A stretch of DNA of 64,000 bases from an uncultured delta proteobacterium (GTDB lineage Bacteria; Desulfobacterota; Syntrophia; Syntrophales; CAMTWB01): the NCBI GenBank assembly GCA_947085375.1, contig CAMTWB010000026.1:7689-71688 (forward strand), written 5' to 3'. Under the pieces are notes generated by a model, which saw only the letters and a list, made by a program, of their open reading frames with translations, was not told where the DNA came from and searched no databases. Below, piece after piece: positions 17,801-33,787 of the stretch (the stretch's first letter is position 1; the number at the start of each line of letters is the position of its first letter). The position numbers were made by a program, and so were the translations under genes.

Positions 17801-18835
17801 CTATTTGCCTAACTGATCCTTTATTTTTCGGCGATCTTGAATTGCCTTGGACACCCTTCCTAAGGCGGCGGTAATTTTATCATCCGGCTTAGTAAGGAGC
17901 CGATCGGATTTCCGGTAGAGATCCAGGGCCTGCTCCAGGTCTCCTGTTATCTCCGAACATATGCCCAGATCGTAGAGCAGGGCGGCAGTAGGCTGGGAGA
18001 GCGCCCGGGCCTCGCCCCAGAGCTCACAGGCGCGGTCAAGACGGTTATTTTTGGCAAACTCCAGCCCCTGCTTGAATAGTCTTTCCGCCTCCCGGGAAGT
18101 CATGCCGTCGGTGGAATCCATCAGTTGCACCGAAACGGTAACATAATGGGGAGCGACATCAGCCCTGAAACTATGCTTTGCCTGCTGTTTGGCCTGCTCA
18201 AGCAGTTCGCTATGGCTGACCAATGGTCTGGGACTGTCCTCACAGGCAGACGATCTGGCTGTACCGGAAATATTGCTTGCATAGACGATGCGTCCCGTTT
18301 CAACCTCCAGCAATTTTGGCGTGGCCGCAAAAGAAGCGACCCGGGATGTACAGGAAACGTTGTATTTTACCCAGCGGACGCATTCTCTATATTCTTTCCC
18401 CTTTTCATTCTTTTTCGTTACTTCTGAGGCACAGCGGGTACGTTCTTCCTGGTAACGGTTGTCGTTACTGCGTGATAAAGTGATGCTGCCTGTATAAATG
18501 CCCCGGGCGCCAACCAGTTTGCCGAGCCGGGCGACATTGCCCGGGTCCATCAGAGCGCTTTGGGAGAAATTCAACTCTTCGATCAGCCGGTCGATTTTTG
18601 TTCGGTCGACCAGGGAAAAATACTGGCGGTCGCCGATATTAATTCCGGCTAATGTGCCTTCTATTTCAGCAGCAAAGTTTTTTCCTCCGGGTCCATCAAA
18701 GGGCAAAACGGCGACTTCCTTCAGTAGGGAAGCCTCGTGTGCCCTGGCCGGTAAAAGAGCGGTGGTTTTAAGGCTTGGGGGGGCGCAGCCTAAAAGTGCA
18801 GACACAATAAGTATGAGGGCAATTATGATTCTCAC
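17801..18835 (-). CDS. CsgG/LpoB-like lipoprotein with C-terminal TPR-like helices
   Basis: GTG at 18835 lies 9 nt after GGAGG. Lipobox LLGC. VAVLPFDG...LVDRTKIDRLIEELNFSQS...LGKLVGARGIYTGSIT resembles CsgG-family lipoproteins. The ATG at 19012 would bury the signal peptide at residue 60. Confidence 0.6.
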   Translation of the reverse strand: MRIIIALILIVSALLGCAPPSLKTTALLPARAHEASLLKEVAVLPFDGPGGKNFAAEIEGTLAGINIGDRQYFSLVDRTKIDRLIEELNFSQSALMDPGNVARLGKLVGARGIYTGSITLSRSNDNRYQEERTRCASEVTKKNEKGKEYRECVRWVKYNVSCTSRVASFAATPKLLEVETGRIVYASNISGTARSSACEDSPRPLVSHSELLEQAKQQAKHSFRADVAPHYVTVSVQLMDSTDGMTSREAERLFKQGLEFAKNNRLDRACELWGEARALSQPTAALLYDLGICSEITGDLEQALDLYRKSDRLLTKPDDKITAALGRVSKAIQDRRKIKDQLGK

Positions 18836-19436
18836 GGCGTTAGACCTCCATTCAAGATCGTCTTGAGAGCAGCAAAAGTGGCCCGCCCCGGGAGGCGGTC
18901 CAGTGCCGTTGTTAACCGCTTGCGTCCGCCGTCCTTGCGGCTTAACCTGTCTGTAACCCGGATTGCCTGACGCTTTACTCAGACAATCACTACAAAAGCC
19001 GTAATATTCCATTCTAGACCTGATTAACCGAAAGCCGGTTTTTTCGGAATCATTCAGTTTAAGGTTGAATAATCAAATTTATATTTCTTGTCAAGCGGTT
19101 GGATGCGATGGCAGAGAACTTACCGCCGGCAGGCTGTTTGCAAAGTCGTCAATTTTTGTCGTTTTATTTATCAGGGGATTATGTTACAGATATAGAAGCA
19201 TAAAGCGTTATTCAAATTAAATTAGCTATATGCATGATATTTACTTGTGTAGCTACTTAGGCTTGATTTATGCCAGCCCAGATGTTTTATAGTTTTGAGC
19301 CTAAACAACAAGTGGCTACCTGAAATGATGATATCGTATAAGATTTAGGGAAAAATATTTGGCAACTGCTTTTGCAGGAAGGCTCGGATGCGGCCCGCGC
19401 ATTGCACTCAACTTTTTATAATGGCAGCATAATGGT

Positions 19437-20231
19437 ATGGATTTAGCCACAATTCTTGGAATCATCAGCGGTTTTTCATTGGTCATCATTGCCATGGGAG
19501 CAGGTGGCGGCATTGGCTGGTTCATCAACGGGCCTTCGGCGATGATAGTCCTGGGAGGAACCTTGGGGGCAATACTTATAAATTATCCCCTGCGCGACTT
19601 GCTGGGTGTGCTCAAGGTCGCAAAAAACGTTTTTTTATCAAAATTGCCGCGAGAAAAAGAGATCGTAGCGGCTATTATATTCATGGCCCGCCATACCAGG
19701 CGCAACGGTATCTTATCTATTGAATCTGCAATGAATGACAAGGGTTTCGATCCCTGGCTGAAAAAAGCTCTCATGTTGGTGGTCGATGGGCTGGATCAAA
19801 AGGACATCAAAAATATATTGCGAACAGAGATCAATTTTATTGAAGAGAGGCACCGCCTGGGTGCGGAAATTTTTACCAGCATGGGCAACTTCGCGCCGGC
19901 AATGGGTATGATGGGCACTCTTATCGGATTGGTTAAAATGCTGATGTATATGAATGATCCAGCGAATATTGGCCCTTCCATGGCCGTGGCTTTAGTAACA
20001 ACTTTCTATGGGGTAATTTTGGCTAACCTAGTATTTCTGCCAATTGCGGGTAAACTAAAAAACATGAGTTCTCAGGAGCTGTTGATCAAACAATTGATCC
20101 TTCAGGGCGTGCTATCGATACAGTCAGGAGACAATCCTCAAATCTTGGAAGAAAAATTAAATTCCTTCATCTCACCCGGCGAAAGACGCAGGCAAACTGC
20201 TTCAGGGGTAGGTAATGATCAAAGACAATAG
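19437..20231 (+). CDS. motA: flagellar stator protein MotA
   Basis: 264 aa, four TM segments, MotA/TolQ/ExbB channel motif GPSMAVALVTTFYGVILANLVFLPIAGKL. Confidence 0.9.
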   Translation: MDLATILGIISGFSLVIIAMGAGGGIGWFINGPSAMIVLGGTLGAILINYPLRDLLGVLKVAKNVFLSKLPREKEIVAAIIFMARHTRRNGILSIESAMNDKGFDPWLKKALMLVVDGLDQKDIKNILRTEINFIEERHRLGAEIFTSMGNFAPAMGMMGTLIGLVKMLMYMNDPANIGPSMAVALVTTFYGVILANLVFLPIAGKLKNMSSQELLIKQLILQGVLSIQSGDNPQILEEKLNSFISPGERRRQTASGVGNDQRQ

Positions 20232-20901
20232 GAGCGACAGTGATTATTGGCAGACTATATACTGCGCTTTAATGCTCATTATCGTCGCTTTTTTTATGTT
20301 TCTGATATCAGTTTCCAAATTGGAGAAAGCCAAGCTTAAAAGCTTTACTGATACATATAGGTCAGATGCCATTGTCACAGCGACAAGGCAGCAACTGGAG
20401 ACAAATGACGGCCAGCTGATAAATGATGCACTTTTTAACCAACTCGGCGGGAGGTTGGATGCAATACTGGAGAATACCGGTTATAAAGGTGCGGTTGGAT
20501 TGGAACGCGTCCCCGGAGGCATTAAGGCAACTATTATTTCTGAGCTTCTGTTCGAATCGGCAACAGCGCACCTAAAAAGAGACTTCCTGGCTGTGCTTGA
20601 TGAAATTTCCAATATTGCCAAGGAATCAGAATTAAGTCTCGCAATAGAAGGGCATACTGATAATCAAGCGATTATATCAGATAAATACCCATCAAACTGG
20701 GAATTATCCACTGCCCGCGCCGTAAGCTTATTAAAGTATTTTTTGGAGTCCGGCGGAATTCCTCCAGAGAGGCTCCGCGCTGCCGGTTTTGGCCAATACC
20801 GGCCTATCGCAGATAATGAGACGCCAGAGGGCCGAAAAAAGAATCGCCGCGCAGAACTTTATCTCTTCCCTGCTTCTGTCAACCACAAGACGAATAATTA
20901 A
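20215..20901 (+). CDS. MotB-like OmpA-domain protein lacking the channel Asp
   Basis: TM segment WQTIYCALMLIIVAFF aligns to MotB WxxxYADxMTxxxxFF but has Ala (GCT 20266-20268) in place of Asp. Intact OmpA-like C-terminus EGHTDN...NRRAELYL. Confidence 0.8.
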   Translation: MIKDNRSDSDYWQTIYCALMLIIVAFFMFLISVSKLEKAKLKSFTDTYRSDAIVTATRQQLETNDGQLINDALFNQLGGRLDAILENTGYKGAVGLERVPGGIKATIISELLFESATAHLKRDFLAVLDEISNIAKESELSLAIEGHTDNQAIISDKYPSNWELSTARAVSLLKYFLESGGIPPERLRAAGFGQYRPIADNETPEGRKKNRRAELYLFPASVNHKTNN

Positions 20902-20907
20902 CCTCTT

Positions 20908-21636
20908 ATGAGCAATAAAAGACTGCCGATACCGTCAAATCAAAAAACATGGTTAATTACATTCAATGATCTGATTACGTTACTTTTGACTTTTTTTGTT
21001 CTGATACTATCTTTGTCTTCTATTAACGCCGAGGGGCTGCGGAGGATGTCCTCTTCGCTGCAAGAGTCAATTCTCGGGCTTCGGGGCGATAAGAAAGTTC
21101 AGGTATTTGAGCCTTTCGTCAGGAATTTGGAAGATGAAGATATTGCAAAAAATAAACAAGCTGACATTATAAAAAGGGAATTAGCGGCCAATGAACTGCA
21201 GCAGAAACTGGCGGAACAATTTGCTGAGTCTGTTAGCGGTGTAAAGGGTATGGAGGTTAAGAAGGAGGGTCAAGGGATCATAATTTCTTTACCCGACTCG
21301 TTGCTTTTTGCATCGGGAAGCGCGGAAGTAAAGAAAAAGAATGGAGTTATTCGCTTACTTGCTGATAATATTCGAACGATCAATGCCCAAATTACTATTG
21401 AGGGTCATACTGACGATGTACCTGTTGTTAGCAATACCTACCCCTCGAACTGGGAATTGTCGATGGCAAGGGCCGTGAATATCTTGAAACTTCTAATAAG
21501 TGAAGGTGGCATCGATCCCGCCCGCTTATCGGCAGCAGGTTATGCGCATACCCGTCCCCTAGCCCCCAATGATTCAGCCCCCGGAAGAAAAGCTAACCGG
21601 CGGGTAAATATTCTACTAACTATCGAAAATATATGA
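20908..21636 (+). CDS. motB: flagellar stator protein MotB
   Basis: WLITFNDLITLLLTFF with the conserved Asp. OmpA-like EGHTDD...NRRVNILL. Confidence 0.85.
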   Translation: MSNKRLPIPSNQKTWLITFNDLITLLLTFFVLILSLSSINAEGLRRMSSSLQESILGLRGDKKVQVFEPFVRNLEDEDIAKNKQADIIKRELAANELQQKLAEQFAESVSGVKGMEVKKEGQGIIISLPDSLLFASGSAEVKKKNGVIRLLADNIRTINAQITIEGHTDDVPVVSNTYPSNWELSMARAVNILKLLISEGGIDPARLSAAGYAHTRPLAPNDSAPGRKANRRVNILLTIENI

Positions 21637-21644
21637 GGTGAGCA

Positions 21645-22133
21645 ATGGCTAATAAGAATAGCGAAGACAAGACGGCAGCAACCCCGGCGGCGGTAAAAAA
21701 ACCTGCTTGGAAATTGGCGCTAATTATCTTTCTGGCCCTGATTGTGCTAGGCGGAATTGGTTTTGCAGCGTATGAATTCGTTTTGAAGAAAGGATTGCCG
21801 GAAAAGCAGGCGAAAAAGGAATCTTCAATTACAAGTGCAATTTGGTCGATGGATCCCTTTGTGGTTAATCTGCTTGATAATCATGGAGGAAGATATCTCA
21901 AGGTTGTGATCCAATTGGAAATTCAGGATGATAAGACCTTGCCTGAGTTCAATGCCAGTAAGCCCAGACTCAGAGATGCTGTCATTGATCTAATTTCGGC
22001 CAAATCTTACAAAGAGTTGATGGAACCAGGCGGCAAGCAGCAACTTCGGGACGAACTTCTCCTTAGACTCAATGCCAACCTAAAAGAAGGGAAGGTTGCA
22101 AAGATATATTTTACTGAGTTTATTATTCAATAG
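21645..22133 (+). CDS. fliL: flagellar basal-body-associated protein FliL
   Basis: Single TM segment, then FVVNLLDNHGGRYLKVVIQLE...KIYFTEFIIQ, the typical FliL signature. Confidence 0.85.
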   Translation: MANKNSEDKTAATPAAVKKPAWKLALIIFLALIVLGGIGFAAYEFVLKKGLPEKQAKKESSITSAIWSMDPFVVNLLDNHGGRYLKVVIQLEIQDDKTLPEFNASKPRLRDAVIDLISAKSYKELMEPGGKQQLRDELLLRLNANLKEGKVAKIYFTEFIIQ

Positions 22134-22157
22134 TATCGTTTGCCAGGAAGAAGCATT

Positions 22158-23150
22158 ATGGCCGGTATATTGTCACAGGAAGAAGTCGATGCCTTGATTC
22201 ATGGGTTGAACGAAGGGAAACTTCCGGCAGATGCTAAGGAGGACTCTTCAGGAGTCAAGCCCTACGATCTTACCACTCACGAGAGGATCATCAGGGGCAA
22301 AATGCCTACCCTGGAGATCATCAACGAGAAATTTGCTCGTTTGTTCCGGACGACAATGCAATCAATGCTCCGCCGGGTTATAAATGTCACCACTCTGGCT
22401 ACATCCGTGATCAAATTTCAAGACTATTTGAAAACCTTGCCGGTGCCTTCCAGCATACAGGTTATCAAGCTCGAGCCGTTGCGAGGGAGCGCTATTTTAG
22501 TCATAGATTCAAAGCTGATATTCACATTTATTGACATAATACTAGGTGGCACAGGGAAGACTCCTTACAAGGTAGAGGGTCGTGAATTCTCCGCTATTGA
22601 AAATAATATCATCAGAAGGATCATCGACAGATCCTTGACAGATTTTGAAAATGCCTGGAGTTATGTCATAAACTTAACCGCGACCTACCAGAAAACTGAA
22701 ATCAATCCCCAGTTTTGCCTGATAACACTCCCAACAGATCCTGTCGTTATTATTACATTTTTAATTGAGATGGAACATTCATCGGGCAAGATGACCATCT
22801 GTATTCCCTACACCAACCTGGAGCCTTTGAGAGAAAAATTGACCAGCCGATTTCAAGGTGAACAGTCGGATAATGACTTGCTGTGGGCAACAAGATTAAA
22901 AGCGGGCCTGATGCTTGCAAGTATAAATGTGGCAGCAGAAGCCGGGAAGGTCACTATTGCCGGACGAGATCTCGTAAGCTTAAAAAAGGGCGACGTTATT
23001 ATCCTAGATAAGCACTGCAATGATTTCTTTGACGTCCTTGTCGAAGGGAGCGTTAAATTCAAGGGTATCCCGGGAATTTACAAAGGCAGTAATGCCATTC
23101 AAATATCTCATATCGTGGGCCAGGGTGAGGTAATCGAACATGGAGATTAG
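22158..23150 (+). CDS. fliM: flagellar motor switch protein FliM
   Basis: N-terminal LSQEEVDALI (CheY-P binding motif region). Size and C-terminal SpoA-like domain. ATG 22158 preferred over TTG 22140. Confidence 0.9.
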   Translation: MAGILSQEEVDALIHGLNEGKLPADAKEDSSGVKPYDLTTHERIIRGKMPTLEIINEKFARLFRTTMQSMLRRVINVTTLATSVIKFQDYLKTLPVPSSIQVIKLEPLRGSAILVIDSKLIFTFIDIILGGTGKTPYKVEGREFSAIENNIIRRIIDRSLTDFENAWSYVINLTATYQKTEINPQFCLITLPTDPVVIITFLIEMEHSSGKMTICIPYTNLEPLREKLTSRFQGEQSDNDLLWATRLKAGLMLASINVAAEAGKVTIAGRDLVSLKKGDVIILDKHCNDFFDVLVEGSVKFKGIPGIYKGSNAIQISHIVGQGEVIEHGD

Positions 23151-23583
23151 AAAAGACCAACAGGAAGAAAATAATCGTTCGCAAGGCAAACCGGTCAATA
23201 ACGAGGAGGTTGCAGATGTTGATTGGGAAGAAGCCTTCCGGGAAGAAGAGCAAAGTACAAAAAAAACAGAGGTTTCCCCGGTTCAATTTTCGGAATTAAA
23301 AAAAAGCGTTACCCCTTCCGGAGCACTTGATTTTGATTTCATTCTTGAAATACCCCTGAACCTCACTGTTGAGCTAGGCAGAAATAAGATGCTTATTCGA
23401 GAGCTTCTCCAGCTTGGCCAGGGTTCCGTAATCGAATTGACAAAGATGGCTGGCGAGCCGATGGATATTTTTGTCAACAATAGACTGATTGCTCGTGGGG
23501 AGGTGGTGGTCGTCAACGAGAAGTTCGGCATCAGGCTGACGGACATCATATCTCCCGAGGAAAGGATCAACTATTTAAAGTAA
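23140..23583 (+). CDS. fliN: flagellar motor switch protein FliN
   Basis: C-terminal SpoA domain LTVELGRNKMLIRELLQLGQGSVIELTKMAGEPMDIFVNNRLIARGEVVVVNEKFGIRLTDI. Confidence 0.9.
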   Translation: MEIRKDQQEENNRSQGKPVNNEEVADVDWEEAFREEEQSTKKTEVSPVQFSELKKSVTPSGALDFDFILEIPLNLTVELGRNKMLIRELLQLGQGSVIELTKMAGEPMDIFVNNRLIARGEVVVVNEKFGIRLTDIISPEERINYLK

Positions 23584-32328: not shown

Positions 32329-32394
32329 TGGGCAGCCGGTCATCCGAGGTTGTCCTGTTATTTTTGAATTACAATAATTATAGCGTTGGTTATA

Positions 32395-32976
32395 ATGTCA
32401 CCTGAATCCCGAAAAGAAGAAGAGATAAAAGATGTGGCCGCAACAGGTTCTGAAGGCGGTGACGCTCGTGTTAAGATTACGATCAACTTTAAGTTGTTAA
32501 CATATGTTCTTGCCTCTTTGTTGGTCGTAGTTGTATCATCTGTAGCAGTGACCCTGTACCTCTTTAGAGAAACTCCTCTATCCGGGGGAATCAAGGCCGC
32601 TCTGCCGATTCCAAATCCAAATACGATCGCGGACGAAAAACATTCCTCGGAGGCCGCTTTTTTGCATCTTGCCCCCCAATCTCTGCAGCTGAATGGTTTT
32701 TTAATCGAGATCACTGATCAGCAGGGTGCCCCTAAAATACTTGCCTGTGATTTTACACTGGTATTCAAACCCGATTACGAGGCGCCAATCATTGCCGACG
32801 AACGACTGATCCGAAAATTGTTCTATCAGGAGTTACTGAAAAAAAAACCGGCTGAGCTGACAGGCAAGGTAAATATTAATATTCTAAAAAACGATCTTAA
32901 ATTAAAACTCCATGATTTTTTTGATAACAAAGACGTGGTAGATGCAGTACTCATAACCAACTTTCTCATAATCTAA
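32395..32976 (+). CDS. FliL-like second paralogue
   Basis: Single TM segment. The core FLIEITDQQGAPKILACDFTLVF and the C-terminal VVDAVLITNFLII parallel FliL (21645..22133). Confidence 0.55.
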   Translation: MSPESRKEEEIKDVAATGSEGGDARVKITINFKLLTYVLASLLVVVVSSVAVTLYLFRETPLSGGIKAALPIPNPNTIADEKHSSEAAFLHLAPQSLQLNGFLIEITDQQGAPKILACDFTLVFKPDYEAPIIADERLIRKLFYQELLKKKPAELTGKVNINILKNDLKLKLHDFFDNKDVVDAVLITNFLII

Positions 32977-33001: not shown

Positions 33002-33787
33002 ATGGATTATTTAAATAATATCAGATATATAAATGACGATTTTGCCAGGATATTTCTAAAGCAGCTAATGCCTGGCGTGATTCACAACTTTGCCAATCCC
33101 TTAAACAGCATTATGGGAAGAACAAAAATGATGGAGCGACGCGTTGGCGATTTGGCCAATTTTTTACAGGAACATCATCCCCAGGTTGCAGCTGATATCG
33201 ATGCGGCAATAAAAAAATTAGACGCCGACACGGCATCTCTTTCCGATAACGCCAATTATTTCCGCTCCATTTTTAAGGTTCTTACTGACAAGTTATACTG
33301 CCTGACAGATAATGGAAACGCCAATGTGAACCTGTCACACTTAATGAAGCTAGAGTCAGAGTTTGGCAATTTCCTGCTGGATTTTAAACATAATGTTAAA
33401 AAGACGCTGATTCTCGACGATGACATCCCCCCTGTCCCGGGCAACCAAAGTCATCTCTCGATTTGCCTGACAATGATGATAATACATGCCTTAAACATGA
33501 TGGATGGATTCCAGGAAAAGGAATTGATCATGATGACTTCCCGTGACGATTTCCGGGCATATTTAACCATCAGATACAAGGGCAATGTGCCGGATGCAAA
33601 TAGCACCGAAGACAGGAAAACTTGTAAAATCAACTCAACATTAGAGACCTTTCCCAAACAGCATGAACAGAAGCTCTTGCTTGCTCTGTCCCTGCTGGAA
33701 GAATATGGCGCGGCTCATGAGGTCACCGAAAATGGCGGATGGTCAGAAATCAAAATTTCCCTACCCTGTAGTGGGGAAATGCGGTGA
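33002..33787 (+). CDS. histidine-kinase-like protein with H-box but degenerate ATP-binding motifs
   Basis: The H-box-like GVIHNFANPLNSIMGRTKMM is present. The N-box position reads LTMMIIHALNMM with no Asn. No DxGxG or GxGLG motifs. No TM segment. Confidence 0.55.
   Translation: MDYLNNIRYINDDFARIFLKQLMPGVIHNFANPLNSIMGRTKMMERRVGDLANFLQEHHPQVAADIDAAIKKLDADTASLSDNANYFRSIFKVLTDKLYCLTDNGNANVNLSHLMKLESEFGNFLLDFKHNVKKTLILDDDIPPVPGNQSHLSICLTMMIIHALNMMDGFQEKELIMMTSRDDFRAYLTIRYKGNVPDANSTEDRKTCKINSTLETFPKQHEQKLLLALSLLEEYGAAHEVTENGGWSEIKISLPCSGEMR

Follow-up and report, generated by a model that had tools for sequence, protein, structure and literature searches.

A conserved MotB paralogue lacking the ion-binding aspartate, encoded between motA and motB

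The flagellar stator operon of an uncultured delta proteobacterium of the Syntrophales contains two genes of the MotB type. In a stretch of 64,000 nucleotides of contig CAMTWB010000026.1 (positions 7,689 to 71,688; assembly GCA_947085375.1), here called the window, motA is followed by a gene that we term motB', whose product has alanine in place of the transmembrane aspartate that binds the coupling ion, and then by a canonical motB. As judged from the sequences, MotB' belongs to a conserved family of MotB paralogues in which the ion-conducting face of the membrane helix has been lost. We put at about even the chance that MotB' pairs with MotB inside the MotA pentamer, which would give a stator with one ion-binding carboxylate. 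An earlier note on this DNA had drawn attention to the missing aspartate; what is added here is that the family is large and conserved, that it has a partner MotB co-varying with it through an F-N-D motif, and that intermediate operons exist. We found no description of an Asp-less MotB paralogue in the literature, a 2025 paper on MotAB evolution included, in a search whose coverage was incomplete. The stator genes, and the segments of MotB' discussed below, are:

19437..20231, + strand: motA, the stator A subunit, PomA-like (Pfam MotA_ExbB, 4.5e-29)
20215..20901, + strand: motB', the Asp-less MotB paralogue (228 aa), its start overlapping the motA stop by 17 nt
20248..20316, + strand: transmembrane helix of MotB', residues 12-34 (WQTIYCALMLIIVAFFMFLISVS)
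20317..20361, + strand: plug-like segment of MotB' extending the helix (KLEKAKLKSFTDTYR)
20425..20871, + strand: periplasmic OmpA-like peptidoglycan-binding domain of MotB', residues ~71-219 (Pfam OmpA, 2.7e-17)
20908..21636, + strand: motB, the canonical B subunit (242 aa), with transmembrane, plug and OmpA-like domains

The start of motB lies 6 nt past the stop of motB', in the same reading frame. The gene order, the coordinates and the 17-nt overlap given in the earlier note were all found in the sequence.

MotB' reads DYWQTIYCALMLIIVAFF and MotB reads TWLITFNDLITLLLTFF. The place of the ion-binding aspartate, Asp32 in E. coli MotB and Asp23 in V. cholerae PomB, is taken in MotB' by Ala18 (GCT, 20266-20268) and in MotB by Asp21 (GAT, 20968-20970). 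Two alignments agree on this placement, which the earlier note had also made. In the BLASTP alignment, which spans both proteins entirely (32% identity, E 1e-32), Ala18 pairs with Asp21, and phmmer sets Ala18 opposite the transmembrane Asp in the YAD motif of B. subtilis MotB (6ysl). The earlier note had allowed that resequencing might reveal GAT at this codon; three independent Logan assemblies, built from different runs and differing by 1-4 single-nucleotide polymorphisms over 2200 nt, all have GCT, and therefore Ala18 is not a sequencing error. The replacement extends along the helix, with Ile15, Ala18 and Leu21 occupying the positions of the canonical Thr, Asp and Thr. The residues with which a MotB helix packs, W, Y, L, FF and S.S, are all kept.

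Outside the membrane the protein retains the architecture of a B subunit. The OmpA-like domain is complete, as had been claimed for it, with both EGHTDN and NRRAELYL present. The Pfam MotB_plug model matches residues 9-46 at 20.9 bits, below its gathering cut-off of 24 bits, and some other members of the family pass it among precomputed Pfam hits. None of the curated NCBIfam models for MotB, MotD or MotS accepts MotB'; the best is MotD, with 142 bits where 283 are required. An AlphaFold2 model (predicted local distance difference test score 81.6) has one helix over residues 9-49 and the OmpA-like domain, and Foldseek matches that domain best to its periplasmic counterparts in MotS, MotB and PomB, with TM-scores of 0.83-0.87 on the target.

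The earlier note gave the distal protein a canonical segment, and the protein proves to be a canonical MotB. Its transmembrane helix is WLITFNDLITLLLTFF, with Asp21 inside; Pfam finds MotB_plug at 53.5 bits and OmpA at 1.2e-15, and its alignment with C. sporogenes MotB (6ysf, E 4e-41) runs from one end to the other. Public gene calls start motB at Met47 (196 aa; start at 21046), directly after a GGAGG, which cuts the transmembrane helix and its Asp off the protein. Since the transmembrane motif is conserved, the 242-residue form is the real one. Annotation pipelines label the two genes 'OmpA family protein' or 'MotB' and shorten the true motB, which makes the arrangement invisible in public records.

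How widespread is the Asp-less protein? The aspartate is missing from 74 of the 120 best homologues of MotB', being replaced by Ser in 43, Gly in 23, Ala in 7 and Cys in one. A profile covering the 56 N-terminal residues was also run against 1.84 billion cluster representatives, and ~95 Asp-less proteins ranked ahead of the first canonical MotBs. The family comprises ~80-100 clusters at 50% identity, fragments included, in which Ser, Gly, Ala or Asn replaces the Asp. The MotB' of the window is a divergent member, no more than 44% identical to any other. All the named sources of the family are metagenome-assembled genomes (MAGs), from Desulfobacterales, Desulfobacteraceae, Syntrophaceae/Syntrophales and 'Deltaproteobacteria', and the named relatives of the window MotA come only from 'Deltaproteobacteria' and Syntrophales MAGs. 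Two other searches contributed less. A scan of genome contigs with the full-length alignment picked up generic OmpA motifs, most of its 80 loci being ordinary MotBs or lipoproteins and the informative ones only L004, L005, L012 and L063; a homologue search with an N-terminal-only alignment yielded just 10 short fragments.

A profile of the helix was built from 172 distinct transmembrane segments of MotB' proteins, for comparison with those of 43 partner MotBs and 136 other MotBs, the Asp being the defining residue of both comparison sets. The site of the Asp is Ser in 67% of MotB' helices, Gly in 26% and Ala in 5%. At position -3 from it the T/S of canonical MotBs is replaced by I/V, and at +3, where 98-100% of canonical MotBs have T, S or N, 85% of MotB' helices have Leu. 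Since the Asp and both flanking Thr are changed, it is the whole polar face T-x-x-D-x-x-T that has been erased, and not one residue. For V. cholerae PomB, in which S26 stands beside D23, experiments support a place for the +3 Ser/Thr in the ion path (PMC4398553). The earlier note had asked whether orthologues retain the aspartate; they generally lack it, along with Thr(-3) and Thr(+3). This loss across the family supports the claim that the Asp-less protein is probably not a conventional B subunit.

The remainder of the helix is that of a MotB. Numbered from the conserved Trp, the 172 helices keep W0, Tyr/Phe4, L10-11, F14-15, S20, S22, K28 and F32, as in all MotBs. The last two lie in the plug, where across the family position +28 is Lys or Arg in 90% and position +32 is Phe in 66%. 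No variation is seen in the motifs for peptidoglycan binding (EGHTD, SNWELS..R and NRR). Mean pairwise identities measured across the same 32 operons are 0.77 for the MotB' helix and 0.76 for that of its partner MotB, against 0.38 for the membrane anchor of FliL and 0.62 for the FliL periplasmic domain. The MotB' helix thus has twice the identity of the FliL anchor, which makes a passive anchor unlikely and implies a need for specific contacts within the membrane.

The gene neighbourhood of motB' is constant. We collected 50 loci (44 distinct) from representative genomes, from the contigs of database hits and from a metagenome scan. An Asp-bearing MotB follows immediately in 44 of the 44 loci with at least 250 nt downstream, and motA immediately precedes in all 41 with room upstream; an Asp-less MotB beside motA, for which the earlier note had proposed a survey of related genomes, is thus a recurrent arrangement. 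The order (fliK flgD flgE) motA motB' motB fliL fliM fliN fliO fliP is conserved in related loci. The gap between motA and motB' is mostly +2 or -8 nt. Between motB' and motB it is at most 26 nt, and 16 of 39 loci have -4 nt (ATGA) there. Junctions so tight or overlapping indicate that the three proteins are made together, probably at linked rates. A scan of the window found no terminator-like site between motA, motB' and motB, and promoter-like sites around the operon were not in excess of chance.

The partner MotB carries a signature of its own. All 45 partners in the main clade read F-N-D at the Asp, as does the MotB of the window, with Asn20 directly before Asp21 (20965..20970). F-N-D is absent from all 46 MotBs that the same scans found in single-B operons; these read YAD, YGD, YSD, FSD, FAD or FGD.

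Some operons are intermediate in form. L127 (1008..2625) encodes motA, a proximal MotB that has the Asp and both Thr (Y-C-D), a distal MotB (F-S-D) and fliL, and its proximal MotB groups with MotB' despite keeping the Asp. In L128 (1327..2835) the Asp site of the proximal copy is occupied by Asn, with Leu at +3, and in L130 an F-T-S proximal copy has an F-S-D partner. Together these look like a series in which a duplication gave two working copies, the proximal copy then lost its ion site, and the partner finally changed to F-N-D. In a neighbour-joining tree MotB' and the F-N-D partners are each nearly monophyletic, with weak bootstrap support; this is compatible with one main origin of each, and is not decisive.

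Two further loci were noted in the course of this survey. L129 (264..1891) has the order flbD-motA-motB-fliL, and its only MotB lacks the Asp (WMFVFSSL, F-S-S); there is no second MotB on the 2.8-kb contig. This protein is outside the MotB' family, and an independent loss, or another stator elsewhere in the genome, may explain it. In L063 (2827..5753, from a Candidatus Troglogloeales MAG) motA is followed by a MotB-like protein with neither Trp nor Asp in its helix (MISIAISLKLLVYFIYLSS), and then by an Asp-bearing MotB of 480 residues. This may be the same theme, arisen separately in a different phylum.

The MotA of the window is of the PomA kind. Its alignment with V. alginolyticus PomA (8bri, E 2.5e-62) is full-length, and PomA is its best NCBIfam model, at 274 bits, below the cut-off of that model. 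Residue mapping shows that it retains Arg88 and Glu96, which contact the rotor, together with Pro154 and Pro202; Thr161, Thr188 and Thr189 correspond to PomA T158, T185 and T186, and Asn151 stands at the place of PomA Asp148. The coupling ion is ambiguous, with the three threonines of the Na+ site present and Asn in place of Asp148; the window MotB has Thr at Asp+3 (20977..20979), and one paper ties Thr to H+ motors and Ser to Na+ motors. Five positions in MotA were considered as a possible signature of the operons with motB' and rejected, being found also in Vibrio PomA and in L127; they reflect lineage, not MotB'.

What then does MotB' do? We propose that one MotB' and one MotB would form the central dimer within the MotA pentamer (MotA5:MotB'1:MotB1), with a single ion-binding carboxylate in place of two. 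MotB' would stay neutral permanently, still serving to plug the channel until assembly and to tie the unit to the cell wall. MotA, MotB' and MotB would be produced from one transcript by way of the tightly coupled or overlapping frames. We favour this arrangement because the helix is constrained like that of MotB, the plug and wall anchor are kept, the MotB alongside is constant and co-varies, expression is coupled, and the history appears stepwise. A further argument comes from experiment. PomB D23N poisons wild-type motors of V. cholerae (PMC4398553), so that a separate, dead MotB' stator would be expected to do harm, yet MotB' is constitutively made with MotA and MotB; this again favours the heterodimer. 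The earlier note had offered three roles for the protein: a non-conducting partner in a heteromeric stator, a plug or regulator, or a dedicated cell-wall anchor. The conservation of the helix, the constant MotB and the coupling of the genes point to a partner in the MotA ring, and a mere wall anchor is disfavoured.

Several observations weigh on the other side, and the chief one concerns the Asp mutants. Those of MotB are dominant-negative in E. coli. The PomB mutant has this effect in Vibrio (PMC4398553). Such dominance may in part reflect dead mixed dimers, which would argue that a one-Asp stator could turn only if specially adapted. The divergent two-B operons do not have F-N-D, their partners reading F-S-D, so that F-N-D is not a requirement for pairing. 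MotB' and its partner are not sister groups in the neighbour-joining tree, where bootstrap support is weak. Conservation of the plug region is lower in MotB' than in its partner (0.21 vs 0.33), and comparison of the five candidate positions gave no MotA signature specific to the operons with motB'.

Both the heterodimer itself and the turning of such a unit are parts of the proposal that we infer. We suggest tentatively, as possible and not probable, that a heteromeric MotA5:MotB':MotB stator, having only one ion-binding carboxylate, drives the flagella of these bacteria. The 5:2 rotary model now in use has each B chain take up an ion and release it once for every 72 degrees that MotA turns. 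By that model a one-Asp unit would take ~5 ions per MotA revolution against 10, making it a half-stoichiometry, 'single-cylinder' stator with less torque and a lower ion cost. If this is true, the lower cost could matter to energy-limited sulfate reducers and syntrophs, and nature would have performed an experiment in which the second Asp of the 5:2 motor is dispensable.

An unlikely alternative is that MotB' forms homodimers in MotA pentamers of their own (MotA5:B'2), which would stand beside MotA5:B2 as non-conducting brakes, idler wheels or place-holders. The kept packing residues and MotB-like helix conservation fit any position within a MotA ring, the plug and peptidoglycan-binding motifs are retained, and in Aquifex, with one motA and two motB, each B was tested alone with MotA as a stator (PMC4525482). 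However, Asp-less B subunits poison conventional motors, as PomB D23N does (PMC4398553); overlapping frames would fix the ratio at which such a brake is produced, leaving no regulation; and the F-N-D signature of the partner, seen only alongside MotB', would be left unexplained.

We are equally doubtful that MotB' lies outside the MotA ring, as a peptidoglycan-binding scaffold tethered in the inner membrane around the stator, for instance binding FliL or the periplasmic domain of MotB, with a function like that of MotY and the T-ring or of the stator scaffolds of Campylobacterota. A passive anchor helix should drift as that of FliL has done (0.38), where the MotB' helix stays at 0.77, and the positions conserved in it are those conserved in all MotBs. 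The likeness to MotY is limited to the OmpA domain (44 bits against 400 for the NCBIfam MotY model), and it follows from L127, with both Asp, that the proximal copy was a working B subunit at the outset. In favour of a scaffold, the OmpA-like domain with all its peptidoglycan-binding motifs is the best conserved soluble part of the protein, and the MotB_plug match is sub-threshold in the MotB' of the window. Moreover the cluster contains flhF and flhG, and polar motors often have extra periplasmic stator scaffolds (PMC7990780).

It is very improbable that MotB' conducts by some other chemistry, for instance through the conserved Cys/Ser/Tyr cluster (Y-C-S) with the threonines of MotA, and so is a B subunit of the ordinary kind with an unusual site. 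Tyr (91%) and Cys (59%) are frequent next to the site, Ser is the commonest replacement there, and MotA retains the threonines of the Na+ site. But the site can hold Ala (as in the window), Gly or Asn, residues with no liganding group in common, the Thr(+3) of the ion path has become Leu in 85%, and an Asp-bearing MotB is always encoded adjacent. To our knowledge a carboxyl at this site is essential in every stator tested. In PomB its necessity is documented (PMC4398553). Lastly, although one nucleotide change separates GCT (Ala) from GAT (Asp), the idea that motB' is a decaying duplicate, or that its Ala is an error of sequencing or assembly, is refuted by the three independent assemblies with GCT, the intact reading frame, the ~80-100 clusters with invariant peptidoglycan-binding motifs and the strongly conserved helix.

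Current models of 5:2 motors (MotAB, PomAB, ExbBD, TolQR) assume two equivalent, alternating ion-binding Asp. If MotB' pairs with MotB, the need for both carboxylates becomes testable with natural proteins, not crippled mutants, and the stator would be an example of a homodimeric core turned into a heterodimer with one degenerate subunit. If MotB' instead forms separate units or a scaffold, it would be a new stator accessory, derived from the stator itself.

The three stator genes open a large flagellar cluster, which continues as follows:

21645..22133, + strand: fliL, stator-associated protein, next in the operon (Pfam FliL, 7e-26)
22140..23583, + strand: fliM and fliN, the switch complex, in the same operon (open reading frames and Pfam families)
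after fliN, up to ~32.3 kb: fliO, fliP, fliR, flhB, flhA, flhF, flhG and fliA (Pfam families)

Farther along come a fliK-like gene (a weak match), flgF, flgG, flgA, flgH, flgI, flgK and flgL. The genes flhF and flhG are typical of polar motors, and their presence suggests a polar flagellum. Directly after fliA is a second, weak FliL-like open reading frame (32386..32976; 196 aa; Pfam FliL 28.7 bits), which recalls the FliL paralogue MotF of Sinorhizobium, and 33002..33787 is an open reading frame of 261 aa within the cluster that has no Pfam match. On the other side of motA, and divergent from it, lies a gene on the - strand (17801..19012) for a 403-aa protein with a weak CsgG-like match. In related loci it is flgE that precedes motA, and not a CsgG-like gene, so the start of the operon differs in this organism. 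About 60 nt upstream of motA the sequence TGGCAACTGCTTTTGCA (19360..19376) resembles a sigma-54 promoter; its GG-to-GC spacing is one base too long, and it was not counted as a match.

The closest parallel in gene order is the motA/motB1/motB2 arrangement of Aquifex aeolicus, where, as here, one motA is followed by two motB in one operon. The Aquifex B proteins differ mainly in their periplasmic parts; their two MotB helices share 97% identity, and in chimeras either one sustains rotation (Takekawa et al. 2015, PMC4525482). Here, by contrast, the two B proteins are 32% identical overall and the proximal transmembrane helix lacks the Asp and its flanking Thr. The operon L127, with both Asp, is a closer counterpart of Aquifex than that of the window. 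The AglR/AglQ/AglS gliding motor of Myxococcus xanthus likewise combines one MotA/TolQ-like protein with two different MotB/TolR-like proteins. PMC9389320 leaves open whether AglQ and AglS form a heterodimer and in what stoichiometry they occur. Unlike MotB', both of them keep the mid-membrane Asp (PMC9389320), and they are TolR-like and not flagellar.

The nearest laboratory analogues are the Asp mutants (E. coli MotB D32N/A, V. cholerae PomB D23N), which have a neutral residue at the ion site and still assemble into motors. They are non-functional and dominant-negative (PomB: PMC4398553), whereas MotB' is naturally selected, is always partnered, and has more changes in its helix. MotY, of the T-ring in the polar motors of Vibrio, Shewanella and Pseudomonas, is an accessory that has an OmpA-like domain, does not conduct ions and aids the stators. 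It is a secreted periplasmic protein with an N-terminal domain of its own and is not known to have a transmembrane helix of the MotB type. MotB' scores 44 bits with the NCBIfam model FlgprotMotYVib (cut-off 400), through its OmpA part only, matches the MotY chains of the PDB only at residues 156-217, and is encoded inside the stator operon. With MotB, PomB and MotS (6ysf, 6ysl, 8bri) it shares a short cytoplasmic tail, a single transmembrane helix, a plug-like segment, a linker and an OmpA-like domain, and further the place of its gene directly downstream of motA and the periplasmic fold (TM-score 0.83-0.87). Thus MotB' is a B subunit in architecture, in fold and in gene position, and lacks the defining feature of one, the invariant transmembrane Asp with its polar stripe; what is seen of its helix argues against ion conduction by MotB' itself. 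In short, MotB' is a conserved, degenerate third stator gene.

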